The notes beneath the pieces were generated by a model. That model ran no database searches. It was not told the origin of the DNA and saw only the letters and a list, made by a program, of their open reading frames with translations. A stretch of DNA of 64,000 nt. It comes from Amphiscolops sp. MND2022. Lineage: Eukaryota. Below are positions 2,356-35,555 of the stretch, in pieces; position 1 is the stretch's first letter, and every line of letters starts with the position of its first letter. The DNA is taken from NCBI GenBank assembly GCA_964187785.1, contig OZ076409.1, forward strand, positions 33,296,001 to 33,360,000. Direction: 5' to 3'. The translations under genes were made by a program, and so were the position numbers.

Positions 2356-3692
2356 TGTCGCAATTCTGTTTGCCTGTAAAAGAGTCTACTGAACAATCCC
2401 TAGACATTTGTCTCCGGTTTTCTGGTGTAAAGCCCATATTAGGGTGATTTTCCCATGTTTTCAGCGGTATCGCAGCTTCGGGGCTCCTTTGTAGCCCGCT
2501 GGATCTTCGGTCCACCATGGTGAATTACCTCTTCCCTGGGTATTAAGTGTATTTTGATTCGAAGGAAGTACTTTCTCAGTGATTGCTGCAGTAATTGCGT
2601 TTTGTATTTGGGAATTAAGACTAGATTTGATCTCATTCAGATTCCTGGACATCTGATTAGAAATTTTTTCACAAATCATTCTTGTTGTTTCTCTTGTCCT
2701 TTCACTTTTGTCTCTACTATAAGTGTTAAGAAGAGACCTAAAATCCTCTCCAGCTAAATCAGAACTTTGTTGAGGTCTACTTGACCCTGAATCCAAATAT
2801 AACTCATTTTCACTCTGGTTATTCCTATTCTCATTTCTTGAGTAACTTCCTAGCATAATATCAACAATTATCATATCAAACACGATGTCTAACTGTCTCA
2901 AACGCCTCTCTCTTGATTTCTGTTTTCTAGTCGAAGGCATTAAAGAAGAAATCAACGTTTTAACAATGAACTGTTTGAATGTCTTGAATAAATGAATGAA
3001 CGCTTCAGAGACTGGTACAACAGGAATGCAAATGCGGATTATCTATCACGATGAATGATAAATCAGATTGGTATCAACTAGTCAGTATCGAATTAGCATC
3101 AATTGTTTTTAGGTCCGAAAATCCCCAGCATTTAAAGTCATCAGAGAGTGACAACCCCTTTTATGTGGGTCATGTTACTAATTTTAGAAAACGATAATTT
3201 AAAAATAGCCTCTTTCCTGGGTTGCAATATAGTGACGTCTTGTTATCAATACATGGTGGCGGCGTACTGTTTTCACCGTGGCAGACACTTATTCCGCACA
3301 ACTACGGTAAAATTGAAATGAGTAACTGCAATCTGATTGGTTAATAACACTAGTATAGCGAACACATCAAGCTAGAGGAGGAGGAGTTCATTTGAACTCG
3401 TTTTCTCTCTTTCAATAATTGTGCTCCAGCTGTTTACATACCAATTTACAGCAACTAACAAACAGCAATTTTAATGTATAGCAAAAAAATAACAGCTTTC
3501 TAGTATGGCAGACACAAAATTACTTATAATAACATATCACATTTCATGTTAAATAAATAAAAGTTTTGCGGTGGCTGTCCGGACAGAGTGTCCGCGCGGT
3601 TTAAATTGGGAGAATTCCTGGAGGAGGGTTGGTATTATCTCCTTTCAATAGGATTTGATAGTAATTACCGTCGCAGGCGGTAGCCTAAGACA
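2356..3692 (-). repeat. 3' LTR of the large gypsy element (lacks ~190 bp present in the 5' LTR); contains a copy of the Gag N-terminal coding sequence (ATG at 2940)
   Basis: Colinear with 15760-17281; ORF 2461-2955 MPSTRKQKSRERR...; PPT (minus strand TAGGGGAG) at 3693-3700. Confidence 0.88.
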
Positions 3693-4408
3693 CTCCCCTA
3701 GGGACGAAAAGCACTGTTCCCTGATCCATCCCAGCAAGACAAGCTTCCAGTCTTCTTAGTCGCTCTCCATAAGTCTCGCCTCGATACGTTGTAGATTCAA
3801 AATAGCTCAGCCCCACAGTTTCTTTGACTTGCTCATAGCTGCGACCGCAGACGATACAGTCTCCGTACTGTGCCGTGTTCGGCTGTCCACAATGTGAGGC
3901 CATTCTAACACCTTATCCCTGAATACTTGAACTGATGGGGAGTGGGTGGTGCATCTGTGGTAGCTGGTCGTTGAAGTAAATTGGGCCACACTCATGTGCT
4001 GGCGAAGAAAAGGGAGTATCAACCTGAGGTTGTAATTTACCGCAATATTTGATTGGCGGACTGCTGGTCCTTGTCGCTCTACTCGTGCTTGTTTTCCTGT
4101 ACAGAAGACATGCCTGATCCTCAGTAATTCGCAATATGCTCTCGAAATAAACCCAAGGAAAGTCTGGGAGTTCACTTTTTGCACAGCCAGAAAAATCAGT
4201 GGTCATCCGTCCTCCGGCTATTGATGTTTACGACTGTACCGGTACTTGCCGATAACACACGATAACTCCAATATCGCTGTGGTCAGATGCGCTGGCCGCG
4301 GCATCCAGACTGTGCGACCACGTCCATTTCTTCCACGGACGAGAAGTAGCTTGGGCTTACCGGGGGTGCGGTAAGATTGTCGATCGAGAATTGTAGATTC
4401 ACTTCCAT
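3601..4408 (-). pseudogene. Sense-strand accessory ORF of the gypsy element, Cys-rich (HCGQPN...GDCIVCGR), extending into the 3' LTR; function unknown
   Basis: ORF pieces 4283-4477, 3913-4206 and 3685-3903, the last two in the same frame; the TAG at 3685 is CAG in the 5' LTR copy, so the frame reads on to TAA at 3601. Confidence 0.6.
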
Positions 4409-5652
4409 CTTGTATCGTTCAAAAGAAGTTTCTTTGCAATTTTTAAGAGTGATCAGTTTCGACTGTATTTGTTTCAAAATTTATTCGACTGATTTTTCCT
4501 AGTCCGGTAGACCTTTAGTGACTAACCGACTCGCGGGAACACTTTCCAGGGGGAAGGTAGTTGATAGTCTTCAATACCTTTTCCCTTTTCCTTTCCACTT
4601 ACGATGTTTCTTTCTTTTATCGAATTCCGAGGTGTGTCCTAACTTTCTTAATAGGTCTCCAAGTGCCTCTCAATTGGTTTGTTCAACAGCTTGAGATTAG
4701 ATTTTCATCGCTGGTAGTGTTTACTAACACTTACCGTTGGTACAAAATCACCCTCAACGACCACCGGTCCGCACAGCTACAGCCACGAAATTAGCTAATG
4801 AGATCGTTTCGATAATTAAATGAAGAAAATGTGATGAAATATGATTGAAGAAGCATGAAATTACGTTAACTATGTCTATTCTACGGTATCTTCTAGACTA
4901 TTAGATGAACGAAAACACACTGTAAAACTCAGCTTTGACTTATAGGTTTTACTTGACTTCAAAACGATTGGTTTTATAAAACGTGAAACAACTTCAAGAA
5001 GTTTAATTACCTTGATTAAAACGGATATCGTGGCCTACATGTCAATTCTTTGGTTACCATACTTTCTGTTTATTACATATACTTCATTCTAGATTACTTA
5101 ATTATAAGCCCTTTTACCATGGATAGATCCTGCCAGTGAAATTTTTATAAAACTAATAGTCTTGATTTCAAGTAATACCTATGAGTCAATGCTGAGTTGA
5201 TACAACGTAATTTCATAGTTTTGTGTCTAAACATTACTACTTCAATAGTTGTACGGACGCAGGTTCTACCATCAGTCTCTAGTTAAATTTCTATTCTCTA
5301 TTAATTCGTATCCTCAATTACCTACAACGCCGAGCTTCACAGATCAGTAGCCTCAGCTTTTTCTCACCACCTGGACCTGTCGTCTAGCTATCCTCACCGA
5401 ACTTATCCTTTCACTGCCCTGGGTCTGGTTAGGATTTCCCGCAGACGTGTTGGGAGATTCCCGAAGTAATTGGAACTGCTATTTAGCTCCCCCGTCATGG
5501 AGATAGCATCAGATTGGTTTGTTCAAGATTGTCTTCATTAAACTTGATCATGGTTTAACTTAGACGAAACTTGCTTCCTGCATCGTGAAATGTTTTCATA
5601 CTGAATCATTTATTTCAATCTTACTTCCAGAAGATTTTCAAAATGCGGTGAG

Positions 5653-8600
5653 ATGGATTTGTATGCAGGAAGTGAATCGCGAAAATTCATCCTTTTTTGT
5701 TTAGATGAATAGACTGATGGCCAACCGTCACATACTGAGGTTGAGGTGGAAACTACCCCTGTTACGTCATAATCACAGACGGCACAGACGGAGCACGTTG
5801 AGAAAGTAGCTACTGTCAATCCCCCAGTTGAGCCTGAGTATGTGGACACTAAGTCGCCCCAGCTAGATGCAACCCCAAAGCAATCTCCTTTCTCAAAATT
5901 ACTTACTAGTGACTGTAGTGGCTCGAGTGAAAGTTTACAAGCTTACTTTCCCAAAAAACGGTGAGCCTTGGGTCAGAAACTGGAGAATTGAAGCCATTAG
6001 AAGAAAAGGTACAACGTAATCGTGAAAGTAAGAGTGAGTTAATTGCCGTGACTACGCACTGTGAACAGCCTAGCAATGCGTTTCCCCAAGAGCATCATTT
6101 GCTATCATCCGGGTTTCTAGACTCGGCGTTGAACCCTTCTGAAGACAGAGTCCCATCAGTCTGTGATGCTCCATTCAAGAAGGTGGAATTAGATCCTCCT
6201 TCTGGCGTGCGTTCTCCACCACTCAGCATAGATACTAAGCGTCCTTCCTCTCTTACACATAGCTTTTCTGTTGTTCCGTCCTCAACTGCTGATTCTGAGC
6301 CACCTGCCGGCACTTCAGTTGTTCCTCCGAGTATTGGTTCTGATTTAGTCAGCGACACTGGCATTGGGTCAATTGTTGTTGCTGGTTCCACGCTAACAGA
6401 GGCAATGGCGGCAGGGAGGATACAAGAGCCAGTGACGCTCAGTGACAGTTCGAGTAACGACACTCCTGTTAAGGTCACAATCAAACCAAAGTCCCAATCC
6501 CTTCGGGTCAGCAGCCGATCTCTATTGAAGGAGCATTTCAACTCGTGTGAACCTTTTAGTCTATCTCCTGGCCTTCCCACAAAAGCGTTTACCGAGGAAC
6601 AAATTAGCAGTGCATTGAGAGGTGTCGCTAAATAGAACGCCAGGGCGTCTTACGACATGCTCAAAAATTTGATTCAAAGGGCTAGTCAGCTTAGAAGTAT
6701 GTTTTCTCTTACCCCGAAAAGACTACTAAAAGGACCGGGGTCCGACGTTCTGTTGGGAACAGCAGTGTAGACGAGATGTCCAGGGGACCTAGTGACACTA
6801 GCGGAGCTATACACAGAGGCGATGAATTTGGCAGCATCGGTTATCCTTATGAGCATTCAGAACCTGGTACAATCGCCCAACCTCCCCAGCAAACTGCCCA
6901 TTGCTCCTATAGTTCTATGAAACAACAGGCCACTAACGTTACATTTGAAGTCTCTAGCCCAGGAGATCAAACGCTTGCTTCATTGAAGCTCGAATCAATT
7001 CACGAGAAGGTTTCCCGACCTAGAGGTCAACGAGGACTTTTGTGGCTTCCTGTAAAAACTGAAGGAAGCCTACTTCAAAGGGAATGGAGGATCAGAACCT
7101 TTGTCTCTGGCCCAGTGGACCCGCGGTGGTACCCGTACAAAGTTTATTGCCAAATTTGCGAGGCAAATATCTTAATCTACGGGAAGGGCGCCCGCCCGCG
7201 AGATTCCAAGATATTACTCCACAGAGAAGCACCTCCGCAAGAACCAGCGCTGGCGATACGAGCATCTGGCTAGGATTGATCTCGTTACCAGGCTGAAAAC
7301 CCACCAAGTGCGAGGCAGAGATGGCAAGATCCTATCCCCATACCATTTAGAACCTGAGTACCCCCACTAGGCGGTTTTGGTGGACATAAGATAAAACTCC
7401 CCTTTTACGATTAAATTATGGCTGGCACGAATTACATGGCTTCCTCCTCTGACAATCGGGCACCTATCCAAATCTCAATCCTCAGCCGATGTCTTCAGCG
7501 GTATGGCGACAATAACGTCCCAAAGAGCTTCTGGTGTCATTGAGCGACATTGGCGTCATCGTCAACCACCAGTCCTTATTTACAGATTTCGACTGGGGGA
7601 GGGAACGACTATCCGTAAGTATCATTTTTATATTTGGCTAAACACATGTGATTATTTGCACTGTAGACTCTCAGTCGAAGTAGCTACATCGGTTCCTCTG
7701 TCCAATTACGTTGTCCTTCGCAGGTGCTCTTTCACTACATGTTTCTTGAGATGATCAACGATATTGGCACACAGGTGGCTTCCCGGTTCAAATACTCCCT
7801 TGAATTCGCTAATGACGGCCCGTTCACCGAATAGTTGATTTCGCCCATGCAATTCAGAGATTTTCAGTTTAGAACAACTAAACTCGCTCATGCATGTCCG
7901 AGTTTTTGCCCACCATTTTCCGAGTTTTGAAAGGACTTATCGGTTACCCCTCTGTAAAGGGGGTTTTCCACCACATCTTCATACGCTTCTGGCGTTATGA
8001 TCAGCTGTGTCGGGTTTTCTTGAGACGGACCGGACACCTTCAAGGCCAGACCTGAGCTGATATCTGCCTCATAGCTGGCGTGCTGGGTGTCATCTCGATC
8101 ACCCCTAATCCCATCAGTTGCACTGGGATGACTGCGCGCACGTTGATGGACAACTGCTCGTCACAAAGTTCGGCCCCAGAGCCCTCCTCGTTTTGATGAG
8201 CTGTCAATCCCCACACTCAAGCGTAAAAAAACTACAATGTGTTCGGAAAACTAGACTTCTTCTCAGTATTATGCTTCCTGGTCGTCTCTTTGGGCGGAAG
8301 CTTGGAGCTTGAGCGGGTGCTAATGTCCCCTGAATTGTCCACAGTGACTACATTGACTACATGTTCTAGCATTTTCCGCTTTATTTGGTCAGCAATTTCA
8401 GGTATCTATCTAGGCCATACGGTCTGGTGAGTTTGACCTCCACGCACTGCCCACCTTGTGTCAGGAGCTCTTACCAAACTGGACCAAAGTTGTTGAGTTC
8501 CTCAGCAAGTACGCCTTTTATCATGAGATGATGGGTGTCAAAAATCAAGTAAGTATTCTTCTAGCCCCATACACGTTTGGTTTCATCTTTAACATATAAA

Positions 8601-9915
8601 TTTTCCCTGGCAAGGTTTAATGTTTTCCGTTTCAGCCTCAAAGCCTTGAGTGGGGAAATGTTTTTGACGAACTATTTCCTGGTGGTTTGGAGCTCTTCTA
8701 GCGTCTAGTGCGGGACTGTTAGGAGGTTTAATCACAGTTTTTCTGTTAATTCGTAAAGAATCTTGGCATTGGTTGTTTGTAGATACAGGGGTGTTTCATG
8801 GTCAATTTGAAACAGCAATGAGACCGAGGGTTTTGTTTATTCCGAGAGCTTTGTCAACCCCTGTTCAAGTTAGGGCGACAATGTAAGCGTCACAGTAGTC
8901 TTCCTGAAGAATTTGATCATGCTGCAATTCTTGGCTTAGTACAATCGGACGCCAAGGCCCTGACCGTCACAGACTTCCTCTCGCTTTCAGAGTAAGGTTC
9001 AAAAATTTACCCTGCTTGCAAATTGAAGTTCGATTGGGACTTGGCTGAAAGGAGGGATGACGGTGGCCTTAGCTGCTGCCATCGCGAAGTGCAAAGAGTA
9101 ATATGGCTGATCTCTTAGGAGTTACGTAACTTTCTATTTGGAGCAGCGCAAGGGTTCAAAAGATTCACTTCGGACAACGTCAGACCAATGGGTGCTTTCG
9201 ACTTGGATATGCTTCTAGTTGACCCAATTCCACAGGCCACTTATTGCTTCAAACAAATGTTTACCAGCTTCCAATTGCGGGTGGCGTTTTCCAACCTGAC
9301 GAGGAGTCTATCTATTCTAAAATATATCTTTCTCTTCCAGATGAATTCAGATAATTGCATCCGAACATTCAGCAACCCAAGCTATTAATTACCAATCCTA
9401 ATGATTTCGTGTCTAGTCAAGATGCCCTTATGTCCCAGCCTCACTTGACCAGAGTTTTCCATTCTAGCTGTTTGTGTCTAGACGAGCCTCGCTTCTCGTT
9501 CCCAACTGTCAAGTTTGGGTCTCTAAGTACCGATGATCCCAAGAGCTCTGTCTTCGATGTCATCGCCCCCATACAGTCCTACCTTAGTAGTGTCCTGCGT
9601 GGACTTGAGGTTTTCATCTCCGATGAGTCCATCGCCAACATCCTTGCCTTGGTGCCTACGTTCGGCAAAACAGGTCTGAGTGATGTCTACAGTCTCTGGG
9701 ATCAGTTGGATCACTTTGGCCAAAAGCATATTCAGCATGCAATTGACCCTCCTCCTGCCAGTAGTCGTGAAGCTCCTGCAATTTCTGGTCAGCCCGGAAG
9801 CAGTAAATCCGTGGATCTTTTCCACGCCCACAACCACGGAAGACGACGTTGTTTGCTAATGCTAGAGAAATAGTTGTTGAAGGAAGCCAGTAGTCTGAAC
9901 AAAGGTCGCAATAAA
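5653..9915 (+). pseudogene. Antisense (relative to the element) intron-containing gene: S/P/T-rich N-terminus, BED-like C2H2 zinc finger, long unknown C-terminal region
   Basis: ATG at 5653; ORF pieces 5961-6635, 6776-7273, 9355-9873; YKVYCQICEANI...GKGA...STEKHLR motif (frameshifted); GT-AG introns 7615-7723 and 8549-8635 restore the frame; AATAAA at 9910. Confidence 0.62.
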
Positions 9916-10083
9916 TCTTAATTGAAACGTATGTACAGTTGTAGTATATGTTTCATTTTGTTCTCTATAGACTTTTACGATTCTTGCTGTTTATGTCCAT
10001 TTGTTGCTTTGTTTCTGTTACATATCAACCATTTCGCACTCAGTCAGGTCCCAGATAGGATATTACTAAAGTGGGACGAAAAT

Positions 10084-13000
10084 TTACATATTTGTGTAGT
10101 ATCTGTATTCGTCAGTGAAGTTGAGGGCGGGGTTAGGTCGAGGGTTATGTTTTCCTCCCATAGGGCTTTCATTGTCTTCAATCTTTTCATAATTTTTGTC
10201 TTTTGATACTTCGGGCACGATAGTATCGCTCCCTCCTGATGATTCTTGATCATTTACACCATCGTACGTTTTTTCTGCGCGTGTTTCTTTTCCAATCGGA
10301 ACAGGATTTTCTTTTTCATGTGGCCCGGGGGACCGAAGTTCCAAGTCTGTGAAAATTTATCCTGAGGATTGGTGTCAAGCGCAAAAGCGTTAGAATTGTC
10401 TGCGTCCCTGGACGTGTAGGAATCCTGCATCTCGGTTCGAATCGGGAAATTCACCGAAATGTGTTTCCCACGTGATGACATAGAGGTCATCTTGCGGATT
10501 GACAATTTCATCGTCAGGTTGCAGATTGCATTCCGGTCGAATATCCTGCGATAAGATATTTGGTTCGTATTAAGGCAATCTGATGCGGTGTAGGATTTGC
10601 GTTTTGTTGGAGTTTAGCTTCGGAACTATATAGTTTTCATTCGCTAAAACCTTTTCCACAAAATGAGGTCCAAGCCAACTATAATCATGAAATGGAATTT
10701 TTGAGCAGCCTTGAGAATCAGATATTGGTTGTAATATGGAACAAAACTCATTTTGTTGCAAAGGCGCCGCTTTGGCCTTCCGGTCAAAGTATTCTTTGAT
10801 TTCAAAAGATTGCATGTTGTTTTTCGACGTGAAATCCATCAATATCTGCGTTCGTTGCTTGAATTCATCTGCAAAGTCTGCAGTCGCAAGGACCTTCGTG
10901 CTAGGATTCAGGCCCATTTTGTGATCTAATATTATGTGTGGAATGCGTCCGTGGAAAATTCGAGATGGTTCACAGCCCAGACTGGTGTGGTAGGTCGTCT
11001 TATTGTTTAATACAGCTAGTGGCAGATGTTTATGCCACTGACGGCGGTAGCCCCTGAGGCCATTTCGAGATTTAAGTTGACCAGTTTACCAATAGTTTGT
11101 AGATGTTTTGTAGTTGCGCATTTAATTTGAATTACCAGAGTTTGGGCACTTTCGACTACCATCTTTGACGTAAAAGTAGTTCCTTGGTCAGTGATCAAAG
11201 TTGGTAGTAGTCTTTTTGCTTAATTTCTATGAGTAACTTGGAAATTCCTGGATGTTTATTAGCTTTTCCGCGTAAGGATTCTGTTCGCGAAAAGATTTAC
11301 ACTGTCTGGTAATAGTTTCTTCCATGACGGACAGTCGGTCGAATTGGCGACAGTAGTGATGATATCGGATATCCTGCAATAAAATTGGTCTCTCAGTAGT
11401 CTTCTTTCAATATTTTAGGTCGTAGCTGTTGCAATATGATGTCGTTGTTCTGCTTTATGGCTAGAGAGTTGATATTTGATAGTTTTTGAAATGTGGTAAA
11501 TTTCTAATAATTGGTTTTTTGTTTGGCAACTTTTTCAAATGAGATGTCTGATATTCGATTTGTTGGGTGAGTCCTTTCTTGCGTTGCCAAATTTGTTCTT
11601 CAATCTCCTCATCTTCTTCGAAATAGAAGATTTGTTCCAATTCAGAGACTGCCGCCGACTCGTCGTGTAGTTCGATCGTTGTTGTTGGGATATCCTCTCG
11701 AATTCTGAGGATTAATTTCTCTTCTAGAAAAATTTCTAGACGAGATAAAAAAATCAGCGGCTGTTTGTTTTTGCCAGGTATATGCGCAATAGTGAAATTG
11801 AACTGGATGACGTAGTCACAGGCATTCCAGAGTGTCGGTGGTATGATCTTGGTTTGAAAAAACCATGTGACGGATTTGTTGTCTGAGATTTGTTGTCTGG
11901 GATTTGTTGTCTGGGATTTGTTTTGGGTTCCTCAAAATATATGTCCTATTTCTTTGAATGCAAAGAATACTGCTAGCATTCCTCCGCGTATATGAACGTT
12001 TTCAATTAGGTAGGACTGAAGGTCTTAGATCCGTAAGCCGTAGCGCAAAGCCTTTCCTCGTTGAAGTATATTTCTCGAGAGGATCGTCTTTGATGAGAAC
12101 TGCCTACCCTGAGGCCGAAAAGCTAGCGTCTGTCATAATGGCTATTTGCTTGCTAGGTAGGGGTCGTTTGAGTGCCAGTTCGCAACATCGATCAAGAGCC
12201 TTGTTGATCTCGGTGAATTGTTCCCACAGGTCCGAAGTTGCCAAGACTTTTTCGTTTTTTGTCAACATTTTGAAAAACAGAACAAGTTTTTCTGAAAGCC
12301 TTTGGATGTAGTTTCGAAATTACTCATCGAAGTGTTTTCTTCGATATAGGAAATTTCGTATTTTATAGGAAGATTTGGACCTGTGGTCTCCGCGGCTTCA
12401 CCCCAGCAGGAGTAATGATACGACCCAGAAACTCGATTTCCGTTGTGCCAAAGTGACATTTGTGCATTGTAAGCAGCAGCTCTTTGAATGCAGCTTTTTG
12501 AGTGCCTTGAAAAGTGGCCCTAAGGTTGTTGATGACTTTTTCGGCATTATCTGAAGCAATACCAAAATATTCAACATATAGGGCGCATTGGTCTGCCTTG
12601 GTGACTTTGTCCAAATAATCGCGCATGAAGCTAGAAAAGGCTGAGAGGGCTCGACTAAGGCCCTGTGTCAACGGTTGGCGAATGTTCGGCTCGCGAAATT
12701 AAATGCAAGCATCTCAATGCACCTTTGGTCGGCCATTTGTAGGCAGTGGTATACATGAGAGCAGTCTAGTTTGCAAAAGAGTTTTTTGCCTGCCATATGC
12801 TGAGCTGCATCAGTTAGGGTACTGATAGGGCGGTTTTGGTTGATATAAACGTCTCAACCGGCCATTCGGTTTCTTTTGGGCAAATATTGGACTTGCATAT
12901 TTGGAAAATGGGAGTGTTGTTATTATCCCATATCGACGAAAAAGTGCCAATTCCACGCGGATATCCTTTTTAGAGTTAATTGGCGTCATTAAGTTTTGAC

Positions 13001-14500
13001 GGTACGCTGGGGAATCCATTTTTGGTGTTAATTTTACTTTGAATTCCTCGTTCATGCCAATGTCAAAGCGATGTCTGGCAAAAACATCATAAAATTTGTC
13101 TAAAAGGTTTTTTGTGCGAGCAATTTCATCTTGTTGTAGCAACGAGACCGTCCCGTGGAAGTTGATCAAGAAATGTTGACTTGACTCAAAATTTTCCTGT
13201 GGATTGAGTTTTCCGAGTTCCTGAATATTGAGCAATTCTAACAAAATCCGTTTTTGAATCGGTGTGTGATGCGGAGGGTCCCCAGGGTCCTCTGGCGTGG
13301 GAAACCAGTAGTTTTTCCTTGAAGTCTTCAGGTTTTGTAGATTTGATCAAGCTATTTGGGTAGTAAGCAGCATTCTCAGGGTTTTCCTGCAATAGAGGCT
13401 ATGAGGTCACCGGATCTACAGGTTCGACGTATTCCATCTGCTCCGGAGTCAGGACAGTGAAATTAGCAACTTGCGTACCCCTTTTGAGAGTATATGGGCT
13501 GTCAGTGAAATTGTTGAGATGAACTTCGACTCGACCATTGGTCAAGTTGACTAGAGCAGCACAGAAGGCAATGTCGCCGTCGTCAGTGAGTGTATTGCTT
13601 GGCTGGTGTATTCCAGTAACGGTAGTGTGTTCATACAGTTGTGACATCCTCTCTAATGCAGATGGATTCCATGACATTGGTGAACTTGTGATCCGTTGTT
13701 TTTCTTTGTATCGAGAAAAAAGGAAGTTCAGGACACCTTGTCTTCTGTCCAGAATTGTATTATTTCATTGAAGGAATGAAAGACCAAAATATGGACTAGG
13801 GCGTTTTTCCATGACTATAAATATCCCATTGAAATCTATGGAGGTGACTTCAAATTTCAGTGCTCTTCGGAGTTTTCAGCTGCCCAGTAGCAACCAATAT
13901 TTGGAAATTGGATGCCTGGACCTCTTTGATAATAGTCTGAGGGTCTAATAATCGGACTCTACGCAGATCAGCTTCTTGGATGGCGCCAGATAGTGCTCCC
14001 GTGTCTAGAAAGCCGTCTAATGTTAGTTCGTCGAAATCCATTGGACAATAGAGCATTCGCCGTTTATTTTTGAGTCCAAGGTTGGGTATCAGCGGTAAAA
14101 AGTTTGGTTTCACTGTTCTTGTGACTAGGGTGTTCACAAAACGCTCTCCAACGACTGTAGCCAGAGAGACCAGTGAATCTGGTTCTGGGGCTCAGGATAT
14201 GTTGGTTGGTGAGTCAATTGACAATTGTGTTGTCATGGGTCATCACATGCACTGGCAAGGGTCATATTTAGAGCTTGGTCTGTTTCGTGTAAATCCGGCT
14301 CTATGTCCTGAAATTGTTTATCAAAATTATGGTAGAAATATACATGGTGTTGATTGTAGGAACGGTGTGGGGGTCAAAACCATAGTCGTGGTCTGGGTAA
14401 TAAGAGTTATAGTCGTCTGTGAGAGGTACAGATCGTGTACGGAAGTATCTGTTTGTAGTCGGTCATACATTTGGTCGGGAGTGGTTAAATAAGTAGGTAC
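10084..14500 (-). pseudogene. pol: Gypsy pol (aspartic protease, dUTPase-like segment, RT, RNase H, integrase) with many stops, frameshifts and a deletion in the integrase
   Basis: FLDTGA (13850-14137); SKYASPIF...KKPNGRLR and QGLSRALSAFSSFM...LYVEY (RT, degenerate YxDD); TDASFSASG (RH); ITDQGTTFTS and GPHFVEKVL (IN). Confidence 0.9.
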
Positions 14501-14640
14501 GGTTGTCATCTGCTGCTGCCAGTCACTGGATGATGTTTCTTTGTTTGTTGTATAGTATTCAGTATACTATTGGTTTGAAGGGTCATATATTAAATACTTT
14601 TTAACACGGAGTTTTTCATTTATTTGGAGTCATGGCGAGT

Positions 14641-16344
14641 CTAGTTCTTTGAGTTCTTCCAAATGGAAGTAGTTGGCTCAATATTGGCGTCACCTTGACC
14701 GGTGGGCGTCTCATTAGTTGTGGTATCATCCAGTTTAAGGTTTTTGGGATTTAGGTGGGCTCCTGCGCCTTTCCAACATCGTTCGGCCGGGTGGGTGGCT
14801 TTGCCACAAGTGGGGCATTGTGGATTTTCTTTTTTGGTCGACTGACCGTCGTTGCGTTTCGCTTCCTCCTTTCGTTTCAATTTCGGCATTCGTCGTTGGT
14901 ATGCCCCGGTTTCTTACAGTAATTGCAGGTCGTCCCTGGGTCAACACTGGAGTAAAGGAAGCCATTGCCTGGTCGTGTTGCTGTCGGGCCAGTAGACATT
15001 GTTGGGGCTGGAATGTCGTCATCCTGCTCAAGTTCATTAAGTTTAAGTTCTCTTCCTAGATGAGTGACTATTTCCTCATAAGCGGCGTTTTCGAGTCTGG
15101 TCATGTTGACTGAACGTTTTAGTTTTGGTGCAGATTTGGCATAGAGAAAGGTATCGATCACCAGGGCGTTCTGGTCAAACGATTTTTCAGCTCCTTGATT
15201 GAGCTCTTCAAGGAAGTCTGGCAGTTTAATGGTGTTTGGGTCGAACACCAGTCTGTTCCATTTGTGCTTGGAGGATGCCTGGGACTCCGGTTTGACGTAT
15301 TTCCTACGGCAAACGGCCAAGATGTCCTCCAATGTCTGCCTATTTGCCGTAAGAATATTGCGAAACGTTTGCAGTGAAATTTTGCGTAGCAATGAGTGAA
15401 AACGGTTTACTGTAATTGCTTTGGTCATATCAGGCTGCTTTTGATCATTGTCTGAAAGATATCTTCGAAAAGATCGATTTTCCTCGATTTGCCGTCGAAC
15501 GTCAGTGTGGTCAAGCTGACTGAACGTGCCATCAGAATTTATGCTGAGGGACGGTTATGCATACCAACTAGTACTTCAGCAAGACAGTTAATAGGGTCTG
15601 AAGGGGTAGTTTGGTTTGTAGTCTCAAGGACCGGAGGGACAGTATCTTGCGACGCATCATTGATAGAATCTTGACGTTGCAGTGGTTCACGGGATTGCAT
15701 GGACCGTCCAACGAGACACTCAGCAACCATAAGTGGGGTAAGGTTGGCTCCTGTCACGATGTCGCGTTTCTGGTCGCCCGTATGAGAGTCTACTGAACTC
15801 TCCCTAGATGTTTGTCTACGGTTTTCTCGTGTAAAGCACGTATCAGGGTGATTTTCCCATGACTTCTGGGGGCTCGCAGCTTTGGGGCTCCTTTGTAGCC
15901 CACTGGACCTTCGAGCCACCATGGTGAGATTGCCTTTCTCCTGCGTAATATGTGTTCTTTTGAATCGAAGGAAGTAGTTTCTCAGTGATTGCTGCAGTAT
16001 TTGCCTCTCGTATTTGGGCTTTAAAACTAGATTTGATCTCATTCAGTTTCCTGGGCGTCTAATTAGAAATTTCTTCACTAATCATCGTTGTTTTTCAATG
16101 GTCATTTCTTTATTTTCTCTACTATTAGTGTTGAGAAGAGACCCAAACTCCTCTCCAACTAAATTAGAACTTTATTGAGGTCTGCTTGACCCTGAGTCCA
16201 AATTTAACTCATCTTAATTCTCGTTATTTCTATCTCATTCGTTGCATAACGTCCTAGCATAATATCAACAATTTCCTTATCAGACATGATGTCTAACTGT
16301 CTAGAACGCCTCTCTCTTGATTTCTGTTTTCTAGTTGAAGGCAA
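14641..16344 (-). pseudogene. gag: Gypsy gag with two CCHC zinc knuckles; N-terminal ~190 codons lie inside the 5' LTR
   Basis: CNYCKKPGHTNDEC and CPTCGKATHPAERC; ORF pieces 15539-16042, 14877-15428, 14641-14889. Confidence 0.85.
15746..15759 (-). promoter_or_regulatory. Primer-binding-site-like sequence directly after the 5' LTR (TCGTGACAGGAGCC, probably a mutated TGGTGACAGG...)
   Basis: Immediately follows the LTR end ...CGCGACA on the minus strand, where homology between the two LTRs stops. Confidence 0.6.
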
Positions 16345-17281
16345 CAAAGACGAAATCAACGTTTCAACAATGAACTGCTTGAATGTCTTGAATAAAGGAA
16401 AGAAAGCTTCAGAAAATGGTTCAACAGGTATAAATGCGAATATCTATCACGGTGAATGTTCAATCAGATTGGTATCAACTAATCAGCATCAATTTAGCCT
16501 CAATTGTGTCGTTAGGACCGCCAATCCCCAGTATTTATAGTCATCAGAGAGTGACAACCCTACTTCTGCGTGTCATGTTTACTAATTTCAGACACGATAA
16601 TTCTAAAACGAGCTTCTTTCCTGCGTTGCATCATACTGACGTCTTGTTATCAAAACTTCAAAGCAAAATTCAGACGGTTAGAAGTTCAAGGTGAATCAAC
16701 CATGATCGAGAGTTCCATTTCTATACATGAAAGTTAAACTAAACAATTCATGATGTCTAAATAAGAGATTCCATGCATTTGCTGATTTTTGAACGTAGAA
16801 GACCATTGGTCCGCGTGGCCACTCTAATATACCTGAGTATAGCACTAATGGTAGCAGCGTCCTATTTTCACCGTGGCAGACGTTTATTCCGCACAGCTAC
16901 AGTAAAATTGAAATGAGTACTGCATTCTGATTGGTTAATAACACTAGTATAGCGGGTACATCAAGCTAGGGGAGGAGTTCATTTACACTCCTTTCCTCTT
17001 TTGCGATAATTGTGCTACAATTGTTTACATACCAATTTCAGCAACTATAAAACAACAATTTTACCGTATAGCAAAATAATAACAGCTTTCTAGTATGGCA
17101 GATACAAAATTACATATCATAAAATAACACATTTCATGTTCAATAAATAAAAGTTTTGTTGTGGCTGTCCGGACGGATTGTCCGCGTGGTTTAAATTGAG
17201 AGAAATCCTGGAGGGGGTTGGTATTATCTTCTTCCAATAGGATTTGATAGTAATTACAGTCACGGGCAGGAGCCTGTGACA
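15760..17281 (-). repeat. 5' LTR (~1.52 kb) of the large gypsy element
   Basis: Homologous to 2356-3692; minus strand TGTCAC...CGACA; flanked by the TSD. Confidence 0.88.
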
Positions 17282-19286
17282 GACGCCCATAGCCACAAGT
17301 CCATTTACATCCTCAGGTAAATTGTGTCCCGCCAGGAGGAGGTCCCACATCTGAGGAACACTTGCTGACCTTTTCCAGACTGTAATTGCTGCCAGTAACG
17401 TAAATTATGCTCTTCCTCTTCAAAATCACCGTTTAGACAGCCTTCAAAAACGAAGATGATGGTGCCAAAGGTAAAATCTTCCAGATCACAGGATAGTGCG
17501 AAATTGTAGCTGACGAGCTAATACATCAAGAAAATACGATAAACCACATTATTAACATTTCACGGCAATTAGTAGGGGGTCACAAGTACCGTAGGCTTAA
17601 TTAAGCAGAGAGACTCATTTCAAGCAATTTCAAGCAATTTCAAGCAGTTTTTACAATTGGTAGCATCATGATTAAAAAGCACAAATTTTTATTCACATCT
17701 TGGCAAGATTAGCAGTTTGCTAATTGAGTCTTTTTCGCAAGAATTTGGCGATCTTTCAATTTGCTTCCTTGAGTCTGCCGCGTGGCTGTAATGATTTTAG
17801 TCTTTTGCAATTCTCCGGACAAGTCTTTCTCCGGACACGATTTGCGGAAAATGACAGAAAAATTTTGTTCGCCGTTCCTTGAACGAAAGTTTCAACCATG
17901 ACATGAGAGGTGATCATTAGAGATATTTTTTGTAAACCTTTCAAAAACTTCTGTACATATCAATATTCACAGAGTTCTGAGAAAAAAAATTAATTCTCAG
18001 CTCACTTTGCAATAGTGAAATCCGAAACTTAATAATCAGAACAAACACAAAAACGGCAAAAAGTGAAGAGTGTTCAACTCTCCAGTTCCTTGCAATTTTC
18101 GTACGTTGTTTTCAATCTTTCCGTGAAGTTTTTTAAATATCATCATATATCCAGAGAGTTCAGAACAAAACATTTGGCAACAAACCATACAGTTGAAAGT
18201 ATAAATCTACAGTTTTACCAGTCACAATGTCCAAGATGAAACGAACATTGTTCCTTAAGTGAATTTTGATTTATGCAGTTTTTCACAATTGTTGGATGTT
18301 TCCGTATGTATCACGAACCAAAAAAAAGCAACTAGCTACATTGCATAACTCAGCTTGAAAAAGTGTCAATTTTCTTCCAATTTAAAAAGAAAGAATCATC
18401 GAAGAGGTGTCAAATTTTCAAGTTAGGGGTATCATTAAGTACCTTTCAAAGAGTTAGGCCCGTATTGGAGCGGTATCAGGTTAAAATCTCGCTTGACTCT
18501 CTGTTGCAAGACCTTGGGTTGACTTTAACTCAAGCTTAGGGATCTGCGCACGGCAGAAAAACGCATTTGACGGAGACAGAAAAAAAGAAGAGCAATTGAG
18601 AGCAGTAAAACAACCTTTGTGACATTGAACAAGTAATTTTGAAACCATAGGTCCAAGCTAACCCTTGCCAAACAACTTGACTGCGTTTATGGTATTGTAG
18701 CTCGCTACGAGGGAATAGTATTCGAACCACTCCAGAAAAACAACTGCTTACACATCAAAACTGGGGATATGAACTTTCCTAACTTCCTCTCACACTTGAC
18801 TGTTTTAGCGATTGGTTTCATTTCTAGTCGGCGTTTAATTATACATAAAAAGCACGACTATTATAATGGCTTTTCGTCAGTTTGTTTTAAAACTTTTGCT
18901 TCGATCCACAAAATGACCAAATGATAAAATCTTCAAATGGACCATTGGGCCCATCACGCTATATCCTAATATTTGACATTCCGAAGAGACTGTGAAAACA
19001 AAAACCTCAAGTTTAGACTTGATTACTTTCTGCTGTGCGTTCTACAAGTAGGTACATTCTGATATGCAACATCTGGATCTGATATGGATCACATCGTGGA
19101 TATGATCACAACCACATCGATTACGTAATGAACGGTCGCTTGCTTGAGTGAAGAACTGTGTGTGCGCTCGCCATACAAATCGCACATTGAACATTAGCAT
19201 TGCCTCATTTCAAAAGTGAAACATTTCAACGTTTTGAAACATTTAAAACATTGTTACTTCCTGTTTTATTTTGCCGAAAACTTATC

Positions 19287-20108
19287 ATGTCGGTAAGAGC
19301 TGAAGCACAACAAGACAGGGAACTACTGGCCAACATCCAGGATGAAGGTTTGCGGCATTATCTGGAAAAACTCTCGGAGAAGGTTGATCAAAATCATTCT
19401 GATACAAACAAAAGGTTGGACGAACTTTTCAAACTTTATGATGATATAAATGAGCGGCTTCGAGCACAAGAGAGATACTCAAGTAAAGATTCTCTCATTA
19501 TCAACAATCCCCCTTTTGACCCGAGGGATGAAAAAAATCTTTTGAAAAACATATTGGAATTCATCACTGGTACCTTAAAAGTTCGAGATGTAGATAGATA
19601 CAGCTTCAAAGCCTATCACTTGCTACCACGTCCATATCTCCCAGATAACTTGATGCTACCCATAATAATAAAGTTTGTTTACTTCAATGACAAAGACAGA
19701 GTTTTTGCGGCGAGAAAACTTCTCAAAAAAGTTAAAAATACAATAAATGGGAAAAATATCTATATCAACGAACGCCTCCCATCCTTCGATAATCAACTAA
19801 AGAAAGACGCTGAAGCCTTGAACTACATAACGACAAAACGGAACTGTATTGTATCAGTCTTGTGTGAAAAAGCAGATGGAACCAAGCTGTTTATTCCCAT
19901 CAAAAGTGCAGAAGACCTCAAAGCATTGCGGAACCCTGTTGAAAGACCTGCCAATTTGTATGGAAGTGCTCCAGAAACTGCAGCGAAGAGAAAATTTAGC
20001 GTGATAAAAAACGATGAGGAGAAAATGATGATGATTTTTGCGTCCATGTCACCCGAACAAAAGAAAGTTTTCTTGGAGAAAGCCAAAGCTGAAAACGAAA
20101 ACAACTGA
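19287..20108 (+). CDS. LINE ORF1 (coiled coil plus RRM/CTD-like nucleic-acid chaperone)
   Basis: Intact ORF from ATG 19287; coiled coil followed by RYSSKDSLIINN...PIIIKFVYFNDKDRVF...IYINERL, typical of LINE ORF1. Confidence 0.8.
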   Translation: MSVRAEAQQDRELLANIQDEGLRHYLEKLSEKVDQNHSDTNKRLDELFKLYDDINERLRAQERYSSKDSLIINNPPFDPRDEKNLLKNILEFITGTLKVRDVDRYSFKAYHLLPRPYLPDNLMLPIIIKFVYFNDKDRVFAARKLLKKVKNTINGKNIYINERLPSFDNQLKKDAEALNYITTKRNCIVSVLCEKADGTKLFIPIKSAEDLKALRNPVERPANLYGSAPETAAKRKFSVIKNDEEKMMMIFASMSPEQKKVFLEKAKAENENN

Positions 20109-20639
20109 ATATAGAAAGAAAACTAAACTTTCTCTATATAAACATAAACAAGCATTTGTGTTCCTTATTTAATCTAAACTTGGATAAAAGAGCAAATTAT
20201 TACTCTCTTTGAAATCATGATGAAAACTTAGGGTATAAAAAAAAACGATTGTACAATTAATCTTATAACGTTTTTGCATTTATTCGTTTATTTTTCATGT
20301 CTTTTTAGGTGGGGACGATTCTCCGTTTCCCACAGCAGCGATTCTCCGCTGCCCAAGAAAAAAAAACAAAAGAAAAAGGCGAAAAAGAAGAAAAATTTCG
20401 AAATGTAGTAGAGACGATTCTCCGTCTTTGCTGTTTTCTGTTTTTCAAACTTTTTTTTTCTCTATTGAAAACAACATTTGCCAAATTTCTGCATGTGACC
20501 CAGGCGATTGGCATGACATAGGCGCACATCAGTTCTTTGTTGCAACAAATTCGACCTTTCACTTTGCAAGAAACCAACAAGAGACAAAAACACTAAAAAC
20601 ACTGCCGCCTTGTAACGAAAAAAAAAATAAACCAAAAGT

Positions 20640-23460
20640 TTGACTGCAAATTTGAAAAACCAAAACTTCGAGAACTGTATGGTAGAGGGGTTGACATTTT
20701 TCTATAATAATATAAGATCAGTATCAACAAACTTAGGTGATCTAGAAATTTTGATAGCAGAATCAAAACCATCTGTTATCGCACTAACTGAAACGTGGTT
20801 TAAGAACGAAAATGATGTAGAACTTTATAGCATAGACGGATACCACAGACCATTTACCAGTACTAGGAATAAAAGACGAGGTGGAGGAGTAGCAATTTAT
20901 GTTACGTTAGACTTGGAAGCAGAACTAATACACACTGATGAGATACATGAGTCAGTATCAGTAAAAATTAGTGACTCCAAAAAGAAAAAGAAAATCACTG
21001 TTTCTTGTTTTTACTGTGAACCTTCCAGAAACAGAAACCAGTATCTAGAACACGTTGAAGAAGTGTTGATGAAAAATGGCGACGGTTTACAAATAGCATG
21101 TGGTGACTTCAATATTGATCTCTTGAACGTGTCCCTTGCAGCACGGGTAACGCTAGAATACTTGATGTCTTCACAAGGACTTGATTTGGTTAGTTTGAGA
21201 GAACCTACTAGAGAAACTGCTACATCAAGTACATGTATAGATTCGATATACAGCAATGTTCCTGTTCAACGATCCCTGATAGTAAAGACTACATTCTCTG
21301 ATCACTACAGCTTGAAGTTGGATATCAATATATACCATGAGGTCGTAGAAAACATCTATGAATTTAGATCCTTGAAAAAATTAGAAGATCCTCTCTACTG
21401 TGAAAAGTTTCTCTTTTACTTGAGTCATTCTCTGGGGAAAATTGATGAGGTAAACACAGAAGCCGAAGCATATCTTGATAAGGTTGCACAACTACTTCAC
21501 GATGCCACAGACAAATACTTTCCGCTAAATAAAGTAAAAAGACGCGTTTGCAAAAAAACATGGATAACAAATCGTATAAAACGGCAAATAGCTACTAGAG
21601 ATAAACTGTACCAGCTATGGATCAAAACAAAAACAGAGCTTGATCACGAAAAATACAAAAAGAAACGGAATGAAGTCAACATGGAGATTAAAATTGCAAA
21701 ACGAAATGAAGTTCAAAACAAAATTGAGCAAAATAATCCAAAAGAACTGTACAGACATATTAAAAAAATGAAAGGAACTGACACCCAAGTGAAAAATTTT
21801 GGAGGACTATCTGTTGAAGACTTCAATAAATATTTCGTCACTGCTTGTGATAAACAAAATAACACGTCCGCTCCTAAATGGAAAAGTCAGCAAGTTGACC
21901 AACCGCAATCTATGTTTCTACGCCCAGTAAATGATGATGAAATATTGAAAATTATCGCAACATTGAAAAACAAAAAATCTGTTGGAAAAGATGGTGTAGA
22001 TGTCAGAGTTTTAAAGAAAGCGGCACAAATTGTTAGTCCTTACCTAAAAACTGCCTTTATTTAAATGCATTTCAGAAGGAGTTTTCCCCCAAAGTATGAA
22101 AATTGCCAAAGTAGTTCCAATTTTTAAAGCCGGAGAAAAAAAATTACCTTCAAATTACAGACCAATCTCAATTTTGGGTAATTTATCAAAAGTATTTGAG
22201 AAAGTAATCCACGAAAGATTGATGAACTATCTAGAAAAGTTTTCACTCCTTTCGGAAAATCAATACGGATTCAGGAAAAAGAAAAATTGTATCCAAGCAG
22301 CAACATCGCTATATAAAAAAATAGAAGAAAATTGGCAATCCAAAGCCAAAACGAACTGCATTTTTGTCGACTTCAGGAAAGCATTTGATTCAGTTGATCA
22401 TAAAATCTTGTTAGAAAAGTTGTACCATTATGGTATTAGAGGGATTCCTCATAAGCTCTTGGAAAATTATCTGGCAAATAGATTTCAGTATGTTAAAATC
22501 GAAAATGAATGTTCAAAAATGAGATCGATAAAACGTGGAGTACCACAGGGATCTATTCTTGGCCCACTTTTGTTTCTTGTATATATTAATGACCTGGGTG
22601 CAGATGAAAATTGGCAGAGCGAAGTTGTAAAAAATGCTGATGACACAGTTATGATAGAAAAATTAAACTCTAGATCAGATGACAAAAGTTTATTTCAAAG
22701 CTGGCTGAATGAAAATGACGTTGACTGTAATTACATGAAAACGAAGTTTGTTGTTTTCGAGAAGAGATCAGTAAATCATCCAAATATAGCAATTGGGGAT
22801 CATGAAATTTCCTCATGCGAAAACTACAAGTACTTGGGCATACATTTTGATAAAAAATTGAACTTTGAAGTGCACATTAGTAAAATCACTGGGAAACTTG
22901 CACGACAGAGTGGAATTCTTTACAAATTAAGAGAAACACTGAACAAAAGACAGTTAGTACAATACATCCGATCATATATATCGCCAATTATTCAATATGG
23001 GGTTCTTTTGTATGGTTTAAGCCCGAAAACAAGACTACAAAAAATCATGTTACTTCAAAAAAAAATAATTCGGATAGCATTCCGACTTCCACCAAGGGCT
23101 AGTATAATGGCAAAATTTAAAGAGCTAAAAATTGGCACAGTTTTTGAATACCATATATACGAAGTTTTCACGTACTCTATTAATGAGATTCGAAATGGTT
23201 TCAAAAATTTGAAGATTGGGGCTCAAACCAGGCAGACAAGAAACAGAAGTCTAAACGTTTGGAACTTCGCTGCAAAAACTGATCGGCTAGATTCTCATGC
23301 AATAATACTAATGAATGCTTTACGTAAGTGGGGTGTCTTGCCGTCCGAGGAAAATATATGTGAAATGGATGAAAAGCAGGTTCTAAACTTCTATCACCAA
23401 ATTTCAGATCTATATATTTTTGGCAACGGTGAACTGATCGATCTCCTCTACAATAGATAA
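20640..23460 (+). pseudogene. LINE ORF2: APE endonuclease plus reverse transcriptase, one frameshift at ~22060, YADD changed to NADD
   Basis: NIRS, LTETW, GGGVAIY, GDFNID, SDH (APE); NYRPIS, QYGFR, VDFRKAFD, GVPQGSILGPLLF, NADD, YKYLG (RT). Confidence 0.92.
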
Positions 23461-25983: not shown

Positions 25984-27575
25984 CTAAAACAAAACACAAA
26001 CCGAACCATTCGAGTTGAGTCAAACGAACCAACAAGTTTACCTGTACTTTTTATAGCTAGATTACTGACAGCACTAATTTTCAGTATTACATCTCTATAA
26101 CTCATCACAATGTTTCCATTTCCTCTTTCCTTTTTCTCCAATAATTGAAATTTGTGCTTCGAATCTCGCAGCATACATATTTCTTTGCGGCTTTGCTTAG
26201 ATTTCTCTTCTTTTTCCACCATCGAAAGGTTCATAAAACAAGAAACGCGTAAATTTTGCATATTCAATGTGAATCTACTTCATTTAATTTTCTGGACAAT
26301 TTTCCAATGACACTTTTCTCTTTAGATGTTAAAAATTCGTTGTATGGTTTTGTTTGTCTCGGTTCTTGTAGCTTAATTGAAAAATTTCCTGACATATGGT
26401 TCATTTACTTTTCTTCTAAAAATGTCGAGTCTTACAGAATGCATATTAATTGCAAATCTTGTTTTAATTAACCTACTTTATTCATGAAATATTACTTGAG
26501 ATCTACATCAGTCGGCAACAGACGCTGGATGAAAGTTGCACCTCTTTTAGTAGACATAGCTGCAGAATAATTCTAACACGTGTTGTGTTATATTACTATG
26601 ATGCGTTTTCGTTGAAAATTGGGACAAAAACTACAAAGAAAACAGCGTATGTTCGAGCGCGAAAGAGGCCGCATAGCACTTTATAATTGAAACAAAATAA
26701 ATGAAATAACTTTTTTCGAACAGAGCGAAATTATTGTCTGGTTAAATTGACCAATCACATTGACCGGTTAAATTTCATATCAGCGATTATTTTTATATTG
26801 GTTTATGATTCGGTTCTCCTCCTCACGGAGCTCATCGCGCCCCTCTACGACGACCTTCGTCAAAACCAGCCGCTGGTCAAAGAGCATCAAAGAGACATAA
26901 AAACTCTGAAGTACTTTTGTACTCTGTGAAAAAATGATTTAAACAAGAACAACAACAGTTTTACTATCATAAAATAAGAAGCAATTCATCTAGCAGAAGG
27001 GGATAACATGAAAGATTTTGACGGGCTCTAGTCGATATTACTTGAACTTTTTACATGCTGCATGGCAACGTGCAGGCTAATTTTTTAAAAAACGGAACAT
27101 TCAGGGAGCATGGGAAAATTTTGTAAATTACAAGGCAGATTCCACTGTTGTAATCTGATATTCTACGGTTAAAACAAGGTTTCGTTTTAAGACTTTAACT
27201 CAGATCTCTTTCAGTATCAAGTTATATCAATCTATTCTAACAACATGAATGATATCAATATGGTAACATAATGTGACAGTAATTAGAGTTTGTTGGTAAA
27301 TAACCGAGTCTCTCTGTCTAAGTCCGTATGTTACGGTAAGTGTTTAATCTACGGTAGAGGTCATGATGATAGCATGTCACATTCCCCCCCCCCCTCCGGA
27401 ATGGTCCGGTAGAAGTTTGTTTGTTCGGGCCGTTGTATCGTATTGTACGGATTTCTTCGTTGTTCTCCCGTATTGTACGGTCATTCTTCTCTTCACTTTG
27501 GTCCGTTGTTGTTGTCGTCTTTTCCTGTAAAATTATATGGTTATTAACAGTTTTCCTTTTATTATTATTCGTTTG

Positions 27576-35338: not shown

Positions 35339-35555
35339 TTTTCACAACCAAAAATTTTACAAACATTTTTCTCGGTCCAGTAAAACTGTTAAAAATAGAC
35401 ATTTTCAAGGCGAATCATCAAAAATTAGCCATTTTTCGCTACTAAAAAATTAACAACAAAAAAAATCAATGAACAAATATTTTAACCGAAATTATGTCAT
35501 GCAGCAAAAATTCACTAACCTCTATGGTGTAATGTGAAATGCATCTAAACGTAAT
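35339..35555 (+). repeat. Left terminal inverted repeat of the Maverick
   Basis: Reverse complement of 57147-57365, including an identical stretch CATTTTTCTCGGTCCAGTAAAACTGTTAAAAATAGACATTTTCAAGGCGAATCATCAAAAATTAGCCA. Confidence 0.85.

Follow-up and report, generated by a model that had tools for sequence, protein, structure and literature searches.

The window analysed here, a stretch of 64,000 nucleotides from Amphiscolops sp. MND2022 (GenBank assembly GCA_964187785.1, contig OZ076409.1, positions 33,296,001 to 33,360,000), contains an old Ty3/Gypsy long terminal repeat (LTR) retrotransposon on its minus strand and, within that element, an intron-containing antisense gene on its plus strand (5653-9921). 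This gene sits between pol and the 3' LTR, tail-to-tail with pol as the original prediction had placed it. We read it as a decayed copy of a conserved antisense gene whose protein likely derives from a hAT transposase that can no longer cut and likely serves as a DNA-binding self-regulator sustaining transcription of its own element, and we give this reading as a whole a probability of about 0.45. The existence of a functional spliced antisense gene is by far the firmest part of that reading, and comparison of copies leaves little doubt about it.

The antisense gene and its copies

We spliced-aligned the 800-amino-acid (aa) core of an unbroken natural copy (whole protein 1,280 aa) to the DNA. 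The ATG at 5653 is at the start codon position of intact relatives, and the window copy reads as follows, with the evidence in brackets where introns and exons were placed by alignment.

5653..7614, plus strand: exon 1 (broken), with a long Ser/Thr/acidic low-complexity N-terminus, zinc finger and helical region
7148..7232, plus strand: C2H2-type zinc finger, frameshifted and without its first His in this copy
7615..7723, plus strand: intron 1, slot 188, phase 0, GTAAGT..CAG (spliced alignment)
7724..8343, plus strand: exon 2 (broken), predicted RNase H-like order at low confidence (spliced alignment, structure model)
7820..7965, no strand: insertion of about 145 bp from an unrelated high-copy repeat, ends approximate (genome search, alignment)
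8344..8413, plus strand: intron 2, slot 350, phase 0, acceptor firm, donor decayed and less sure (spliced alignment)
8414..8548, plus strand: exon 3 (spliced alignment)
8549..8635, plus strand: intron 3, slot 395, phase 0, GTAAGT..CAG (spliced alignment)
8636..8717, plus strand: exon 4, with a stop (spliced alignment)
8718..8782, plus strand: intron 4, slot 423, phase 1 (spliced alignment)
8783..9921, plus strand: exon 5 (broken), all-helical region and C-terminus, stop at 9919-9921 (spliced alignment)

Both introns proposed earlier, 7615-7723 and 8549-8635, fall at conserved slots (core aa 188 and 395) with GTAAGT..CAG ends, and the acceptor suspected at 8782 terminates the intron at slot 423. 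Intron 2 and the exon 2 insertion had been overlooked; the insertion is private to the window copy among the aligned copies, and its unrelated high-copy repeat accounted for 37 of the 41 matches of one genome search. This insertion is an end fragment of a young repeat (L005-L030), copies of which are up to 99.8% identical over 1.6 kb. Two further features noted earlier did not hold up. At the supposed acceptor 9340 the spliced alignment has no intron, 9279-9340 being coding sequence after a frameshift near 9278, and the AATAAA at 9910 lies within the last codons ahead of the stop. We rejected it as a conserved poly(A) signal, since of 12 other copies examined, 11 had neither AATAAA nor ATTAAA from -60 to +330 of the aligned end. 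Likewise rejected was a sense exon arranged head-to-head upstream of the antisense gene, because conservation there is not frame-specific. The predicted zinc-finger motif is present, but it crosses a frameshift (about 7193) in the window copy. The window copy is a pseudogene, which had gone unnoticed: its 800-aa core alone has 10 frameshifts and 10 stops.

Relatives were collected from the 1.07-Gb source assembly by searching for the antisense gene itself, and the conservation figures given here describe gene-bearing elements. Single-exon searches returned 4,801, 3,813, and 5,515 first-look candidates, which are not copy numbers and of which 150 were scored each. We fetched 70 loci, picked for long open frames and diversity in a sample biased to young copies, and spliced-aligned 64; the core was unbroken in 37, and the other 27, broken or partial, were excluded from the intron and selection counts. 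Introns occupy four slots across the family (core aa 188, 350, 395, and 423; phases 0, 0, 0, and 1), with intron 1 placed two codons off behind a weak donor in two near-identical copies, and slots 188, 395, and 423 are common to a clade only 22-23% identical in protein. Retention would break the frame for 128 of the 131 predicted introns of the unbroken copies. The aligner demanded GT/GC-AG and gave a bonus for consensus bases, which makes the splice-site counts partly circular and counts against leaning on them; for this reason the independent evidence for the introns is their fixed positions together with natural intron-less variants. Such variants, joined exactly at the predicted junction, exist for every slot: database protein P0279 for slot 188, C9_37.4 for slot 350, C1_50.6 for slot 395, and C9_37.2, C9_37.4, L200, and L201 for slot 423. 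Exact patterns for the intron-1-less and intron-3-less junctions gave no genome match, but they were too tight, given that an intron-3-less copy was later found in a more distant lineage.

The ratio of non-synonymous to synonymous substitution rates (dN/dS) was 0.05-0.16 in the six unsaturated Gypsy pairs among 25 pairs computed; silent sites were saturated in 17 pairs, and two pairs of DNA-transposon copies gave about 0.5 with few changes. These values and the conserved slots bear out the proposal that the element keeps a spliced antisense gene of its own under purifying selection. Nor does the gene belong to an independent DNA transposon with terminal inverted repeats (TIRs): no inverted repeat above chance brackets it in any of eight elements, the longest exact match (9-12 bp) being within the shuffled range. 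A passive nested DNA transposon, or decayed cargo without function for the retroelement, would fit the heavily broken window copy and the 27 broken or partial copies out of 64. We consider this highly improbable, as it is opposed by the missing inverted repeats, by the low dN/dS, and by a place and orientation that are constant across lineages; moreover, the window pol is decayed as much as the antisense gene, so the decay is element-wide.

Two observations on the wider family may be added. Clade B, e.g., L133 (G000:C8:18420380-18430379), which shares 22-23% protein identity, has a very short N-terminus, no slot 350 intron, LTRs of 2.45 kb, and a different palindrome repeated in the LTR and the upstream region. 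Internally deleted copies with near-identical LTRs also occur (L060/L059 at G000:C2:94.73 Mb, L145-146, and L153-154), one without most of the antisense gene and others without gag-pol but with the gene kept; these are possible non-autonomous forms.

The host element and transfers of the gene

The host element has TG...CA ends and a 5-bp target-site duplication (TSD), GACGC, at 2351-2355 and 17282-17286, and the 84-87% identity of its LTRs marks it as an old insertion. Intact relatives carry gag and then a pol ordered protease (PR), reverse transcriptase (RT), RNase H, and integrase (IN) by Pfam on an intact relative, an order that identifies the group as Ty3/Gypsy; of the RT-IN reference, 77% is covered by the window pol. 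These relatives have two extra genes between pol and the 3' LTR, namely the antisense gene and an LTR-adjacent sense open reading frame (ORF) of about 300 aa. The parts recognized in the window are listed below.

2356..17281, minus strand: Ty3/Gypsy LTR retrotransposon (TG...CA ends, TSD, LTR comparison, relatives' pol order)
2356..3692, minus strand: 3' LTR (LTR comparison)
3592..4436, minus strand: remnant of the second accessory ORF (sense "ORF3"), about 260-360 aa in intact copies, CxxC near the C-terminus
5515..5610, plus strand: conserved non-coding block directly upstream of the antisense ATG, candidate promoter or 5' untranslated region element (conservation)
10097..14870, minus strand: pol (broken), approximate ends
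14877..16042, minus strand: gag remnant
15760..17281, minus strand: 5' LTR, with about 190 bp at 16657-16847 absent from the 3' LTR (LTR comparison)

Across the group, RT-IN lies downstream on the opposite strand in 39 of the 43 loci tested, and the deep clades of the gene tree and the pol tree agree (FastTree); on these two grounds the antisense gene is ancestral to the group. Within clades the comparisons tell of exchange. Between elements C8_23.3 and C1_66.6, identity is 86-100% in the LTRs, ORF3, gag, and pol but falls to 51-66% in the antisense gene and its upstream region; pairs with a synonymous divergence (dS) of 0.17-0.20 in pol have saturated dS in the antisense gene; and the integrase region is 98-100% identical between elements that differ in this gene. 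By this evidence, the antisense gene swaps as a block between near-identical backbones within clades.

All 70 fetched loci lay in LTR elements, their fragments, or a CMC/EnSpm-type DNA transposon. The latter, 35.3 kb long (e.g., G000:C2:29298732-29334034; L185, L178, L127, and L128), holds the gene at eight loci, with all four introns present in the seven CMC-borne copies that were spliced-aligned. It has CCCCAG...CTGGGG ends, a 2-bp TSD, a Tnp2-like transposase (DUF1258 over the cut-off, Transposase_21 and DUF4218 below it), and weak SET-like ORFs; both ends were found in three of the four copies fetched in full, and two copies had TSDs (AT/AT and TT/TT). The CMC element keeps a pol 3' remnant and shows no homology to gag or ORF3, and its gene nests within Gypsy-borne copies (support 1.0). 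We therefore rejected the idea that the gene originated in the 35-kb element, and the tree and the remnant indicate instead that the gene was transferred from the Gypsy group into the DNA transposon.

Ancestry and candidate target of the protein

In the window's clade the protein is about 1,300 aa long, including about 480 low-complexity residues at the N-terminus, which are followed by a C2H2 finger, a helical region, a strand segment, a second, long helical region, and a C-terminal block that is conserved. The order of finger, helical region, predicted RNase H-like segment, helical region, and C-terminal block is that of a hAT transposase, and the core of about 800 aa also agrees with hAT transposases and their domesticated derivatives (DUF4371, FAM200-ZBED5, and GTF2IRD2-type clusters). 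The structure prediction for exon 2 gives helix, three strands, helix, strand, helix, strand, which is an RNase H-like order, at a mean confidence (pLDDT) of 44. In the language-model atlas, the finger-helix region has hAT-type clusters as neighbours (DUF4371, FAM200-ZBED5 RNase-like, and zf-C2H2_12; scores 0.85-0.90), the ten best named matches all belonging to the same family or clan as the best. With a hidden Markov model (HMM) of the region, Tip100-type hATs scored above their own reversals in 39 of 54 cases, the first catalytic strand was met in 26 of 54, and hhalign landed in the same register. From these lines of evidence, we regard hAT ancestry of the protein as probable.

Several results weigh against this ancestry. 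The atlas scores, at 0.9 or less with 124-151 shared features, provide no more than leads, and because the 54 hATs are interrelated, 39 of 54 does not amount to 54 independent trials. The hhalign comparison with hATs was not significant (E 0.17 for the best region and 0.19 for the reversed control), while its positive control, Tip100 versus Ac, reached a probability of 99. HMMs of the zinc finger and the C-terminus did no better than reversed decoys (24/54 and 14/54), and Pfam zf-BED (PF02892) and the hAT models, including hATC (PF05699), gave no match, although divergence may hide a C-terminal hATC domain. At the three places expected for the catalytic DDE, no conserved acid was found in 30 sequences in the inferred register, in line with a protein that can no longer cut DNA. 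Foldseek, proposed earlier as a check for a hAT fold, and VIA-align returned nothing above background with low-confidence single-exon models (12-14-row alignments; pLDDT 53 and 44), a PDB sequence search gave nothing useful, and a profile of the core had no match under E 0.25 among 232 ORFs from host hAT loci. Genome searches for DUF4371 and zf-C2H2_12 found nothing, but had no working control. The last exon has no named homologue among long proteins (atlas scores 0.81 or less); in the representative library there were 591 matches, and the 10 clusters inspected among them consisted of unnamed ENA proteins only; the finger region had 259 matches, the 120 listed being all unnamed; and metagenome contigs gave no match.

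The finger itself was recognized as C2H2-type, not as the BED type mentioned earlier. It follows the C2H2 pattern C-x2-C-x16-H-x5-H in 29 of 30 non-redundant unbroken copies, and a sub-cut-off zf-C2H2_ZN292 hit is the sole Pfam finger signal. That no sequence, profile, or fold comparison gave a significant match with a hAT would be accounted for if the protein did not derive from a transposase but came from a zinc-finger gene captured from the host, or had a fold of its own, and played an accessory role in the nucleus. We find this improbable, in that no non-mobile host parent appeared among the 70 fetched loci and that the atlas and register tests lean towards hAT, with fold models reaching only pLDDT 44 and 53. 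The original prediction had left open a captured host gene or a DNA-transposase gene; of these, a transposase origin is likely, favoured by the hAT neighbours in the atlas but without confirmation from Pfam or profile alignment. Because the DDE and TIR tests fail, we do not file the protein as a hAT transposase, from which it differs in having no conserved DDE, TIRs, 8-bp TSD, or Pfam match and in being held by a retroelement.

A candidate target came from a search for inverted half-sites, with expectations taken from block-wise dinucleotide shuffles. The palindrome GAC-N5-GTC occurs 452 times in 13 relatives (34.3 expected), with a sharp peak at spacer 5 (29 at spacer 4 and 74 at spacer 6), and 15 times in the window element (2.0 expected), as against 3 in the rest of the window (5.7 expected). 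The sites are spread over LTR, intergenic DNA, and pol:

4759..4769, no strand: GAC-N5-GTC palindrome, one of 15 in the element, candidate protein-binding site
Starts in the element: 3582, 4059, 4759, 5374, 5845, 6770, 7666, 9298
Remaining starts: 11326, 11330, 12014, 12378, 13533, 13732, 14840

Other lineages have motifs of their own, with GCC-N6-GGC at 70 versus 9 expected (six elements), GTC-N5-GAC at 28 versus 6 (three), and GACGTC at 43 versus 6 (three). Related elements share sites by descent, yet single elements show the excess alone. The constancy of half-site and spacer suggests a DNA-binding protein that acts as a dimer, and the stems end about 2 bp outside the core. That the antisense-gene protein is this binder is tentative, and we would put it below an even chance. 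The shuffle controls take no account of ancestry that elements have in common; at the inner pair of the palindrome there is covariation (157 versus 104 expected); among single mismatches, G-U on the sense strand is favoured (25 versus 14 A-C); the motif-class label changes five times on the antisense-gene trees, as on those of ORF3, gag, and RT, and four times on that of integrase; and two elements with an A3-type gene carry an A2-type palindrome. All of these speak against the assignment, and the palindromes may be RNA hairpins, which would fit the covariation and the G-U lean. ORF3 is a rival candidate binder. This sense ORF (L073:2839-3726 in a relative) has a conserved CxxC block, extends into the 3' LTR, and is constrained and fast-evolving; no Pfam family over the cut-off was found for it.

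It is somewhat better than an even bet that the protein is a DNA-binding self-regulator, and the regulatory or anti-silencing role already suggested for it, which we also infer, would now have a candidate target. Introns antisense to the genomic RNA persist through reverse transcription. Mechanistically, we hypothesize that a hAT gene inserted antisense into an ancestral element, lost its TIRs and catalytic acids, and was retained. A promoter of its own, situated between ORF3 and the ATG, would drive its transcription, the transcript would be spliced, and as the genomic RNA is the opposite strand, the introns would survive reverse transcription; rare exact intron losses would arise by recombination with complementary DNA (cDNA) of the spliced message. 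These losses lend indirect support to such an antisense transcript; a search for RNA runs with one 4.3-kb query from a single family listed none, which speaks neither for nor against expression. The zinc finger and the following helical domain would bind as a dimer to the palindromes of the element, which are GAC-N5-GTC for the lineage of the window, and the long N-terminus, acidic and rich in Ser, would recruit activators or block silencers, as VANC and TnpA do in plant DNA transposons. In this way, the cleavage-dead protein would keep its own element transcribed against host silencing.

Two other roles must be weighed, each of which we think has a rather small chance of being correct. As a cofactor of integration or nuclear entry, the dead transposase would tether the cDNA/integrase complex to chromatin or guide target choice, and the palindromes would be used by another factor, be it integrase, the ORF3 protein, a host factor, or Gag acting on RNA hairpins. 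The integrase tree accommodates the motif class no worse than the antisense-gene trees do (four changes versus five), the covariation is compatible with hairpins, and similar roles have been proposed for plant antisense ORFs (PMC7264820). Yet a close protein fit to integrase is made less likely by exchange of the gene between elements 98-100% identical in the integrase region, an unbroken copy is carried by a DNA transposon that lacks integrase, and the stems stop about 2 bp beyond the core with the spacer fixed at 5. As a self-limiting or competitive factor, the protein would repress the element or its relatives (copy-number control or superinfection exclusion) or act as a dominant-negative decoy for host hAT-derived silencers, and allele swapping would be competition between families. 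Competition would come naturally to a dead transposase, as is established for truncated P and Ac products, and saturated silent divergence of the gene on backbones with a pol dS of 0.17-0.20 points to long-kept alleles; against such self-limitation, gene-bearing lineages reach thousands of first-look candidates.

Taken further, the self-regulator could be a VANC-like anti-silencing module that is portable and serves two classes of mobile element: a tamed transposase would recognize lineage-specific palindromes seeded even in pol codons and shield the copies bearing them, its gene would be traded as a block, and the CMC element would have taken both gene and target motif and multiplied the motif. 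This extension is unlikely as a whole. In its favour, and in that of a self-regulator, the CMC element has 24 copies, mostly in 88-bp tandem arrays, of a motif found twice in the pol tail of the sister Gypsy lineage. Counting against it, this motif differs from the palindrome ranked top in that lineage, and young CMC copies give a dN/dS of about 0.5-1, one copy having two stops, with no sign of selection.

Known parallels and neighbouring elements

The kind of gene, an antisense ORF in this slot, is known from the plant elements Grande, RIRE2, and Retand and from fungal Boty. Antisense extra ORFs between pol and the 3' LTR (aORF-3R) comprise gene23 of maize Grande, that of rice RIRE2, and TRP28/PF04195 of Retand (PMC7264820, PMC11963269). 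They share slot, antisense orientation, and conservation with the present gene, and the plant ORFs are present in most copies. The Grande aORF has its own promoter, a nuclear regulatory role has been proposed for these ORFs, and the Retand protein has a "transposase"-named domain (PMC7264820, PMC11963269). The protein here is unrelated, with no PF04195 match at E 0.1 in exons of several copies, and it is far from these in its length of about 1,300 aa in the window's clade and its 2-4 introns at shared positions, whereas the word "intron" does not occur in the Retand paper. The plant aORFs are described as without similarity to other transposable elements, and the origin and function of plant and fungal antisense aORFs are stated to be unknown (PMC7264820). 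Outside plants, brtn of the Boty elements of Botrytis is an antisense extra gene of a Gypsy element (Zhao et al. 2011, as cited in PMC8365987 and PMC7264820), with no homology to the present gene expected.

For the proposed role the nearest parallels are VANC, whose targets in VANDAL Mutator elements amplify as tandem repeats (PMC5735166), and TnpA of Spm, a transposase-derived activator (bioRxiv 10.64898/2026.08.24.746577). Like these, the antisense gene is element-encoded, fast-evolving, and intron-containing, and it comes with lineage-specific motifs and, in the CMC arrays, tandem multiplication of candidate targets. The plant systems are DNA transposons for which binding and demethylation have been shown; here the carrier is a retrotransposon, its protein is a putative binder, and there is no sequence homology to either system. 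The gene may thus work like VANC or TnpA by analogy but is not a member of either group, and the 88-bp arrays resemble VANC target multiplication without proving it, given the differing motif and the lack of selection in young copies. In bdelloid rotifers, LTR elements have captured accessory ORF3 cargo common to unrelated element types, a likeness to the present LTR elements, and the words "intron," "opposite," and "transposase" do not occur in that paper (PMC5408684).

Sequence-specific anti-silencing is established for plant DNA transposons. We found no description of it in an animal retrotransposon in the literature searched, and in that same literature, which left most subscription journals, Repbase entries, and supplements outside its scope, neither a description of this gene family nor an account of a multi-intron, probably transposase-derived antisense gene with block exchange, palindromes, and a move into a DNA transposon.

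Further observations concern the host element and its neighbours in the window. In intact relatives the gag frame starts about 700 bp inside the 5' LTR (e.g., L048:4384-6159), and both LTRs consequently hold an open frame of 220-270 codons; a weak dUTPase-like match lies between protease and RT in pol (L048:1-4450, minus strand, residues 335-444; E 0.013, below the cut-off). Elsewhere, a long interspersed element at 19191-23460 (plus strand) has ORF1, endonuclease, and RT, with one break between two ORF2 parts. A second LTR-like element (27146-33089) has 237-bp direct repeats 97% identical and a very strong strand skew, and the three of its ORFs tested matched no Pfam family over the cut-off. 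Tandem arrays with units of about 3.4 kb and 2.48 kb fill 42473-56670, where the ORF at 46379-47191 matches the double jelly-roll domain PF21738 (E 4.5e-15), which suggests a Polinton- or virus-like capsid gene in tandem copies. The arrays are flanked by an inverted pair of about 230 bp, 87% identical (35339-35567 and 57135-57365), possibly the TIRs of an element of about 22 kb.

Overall, the antisense gene family is clearly under selection, probably originated from a DNA transposase, and combines a candidate target with many natural alleles carried by backbones that are nearly identical, and for these reasons the question of whether an element protein binds its own element and opposes silencing becomes directly testable. 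In addition, the exact intron losses would preserve a natural trace of sequence passing between the spliced antisense message and the retroelement genome.

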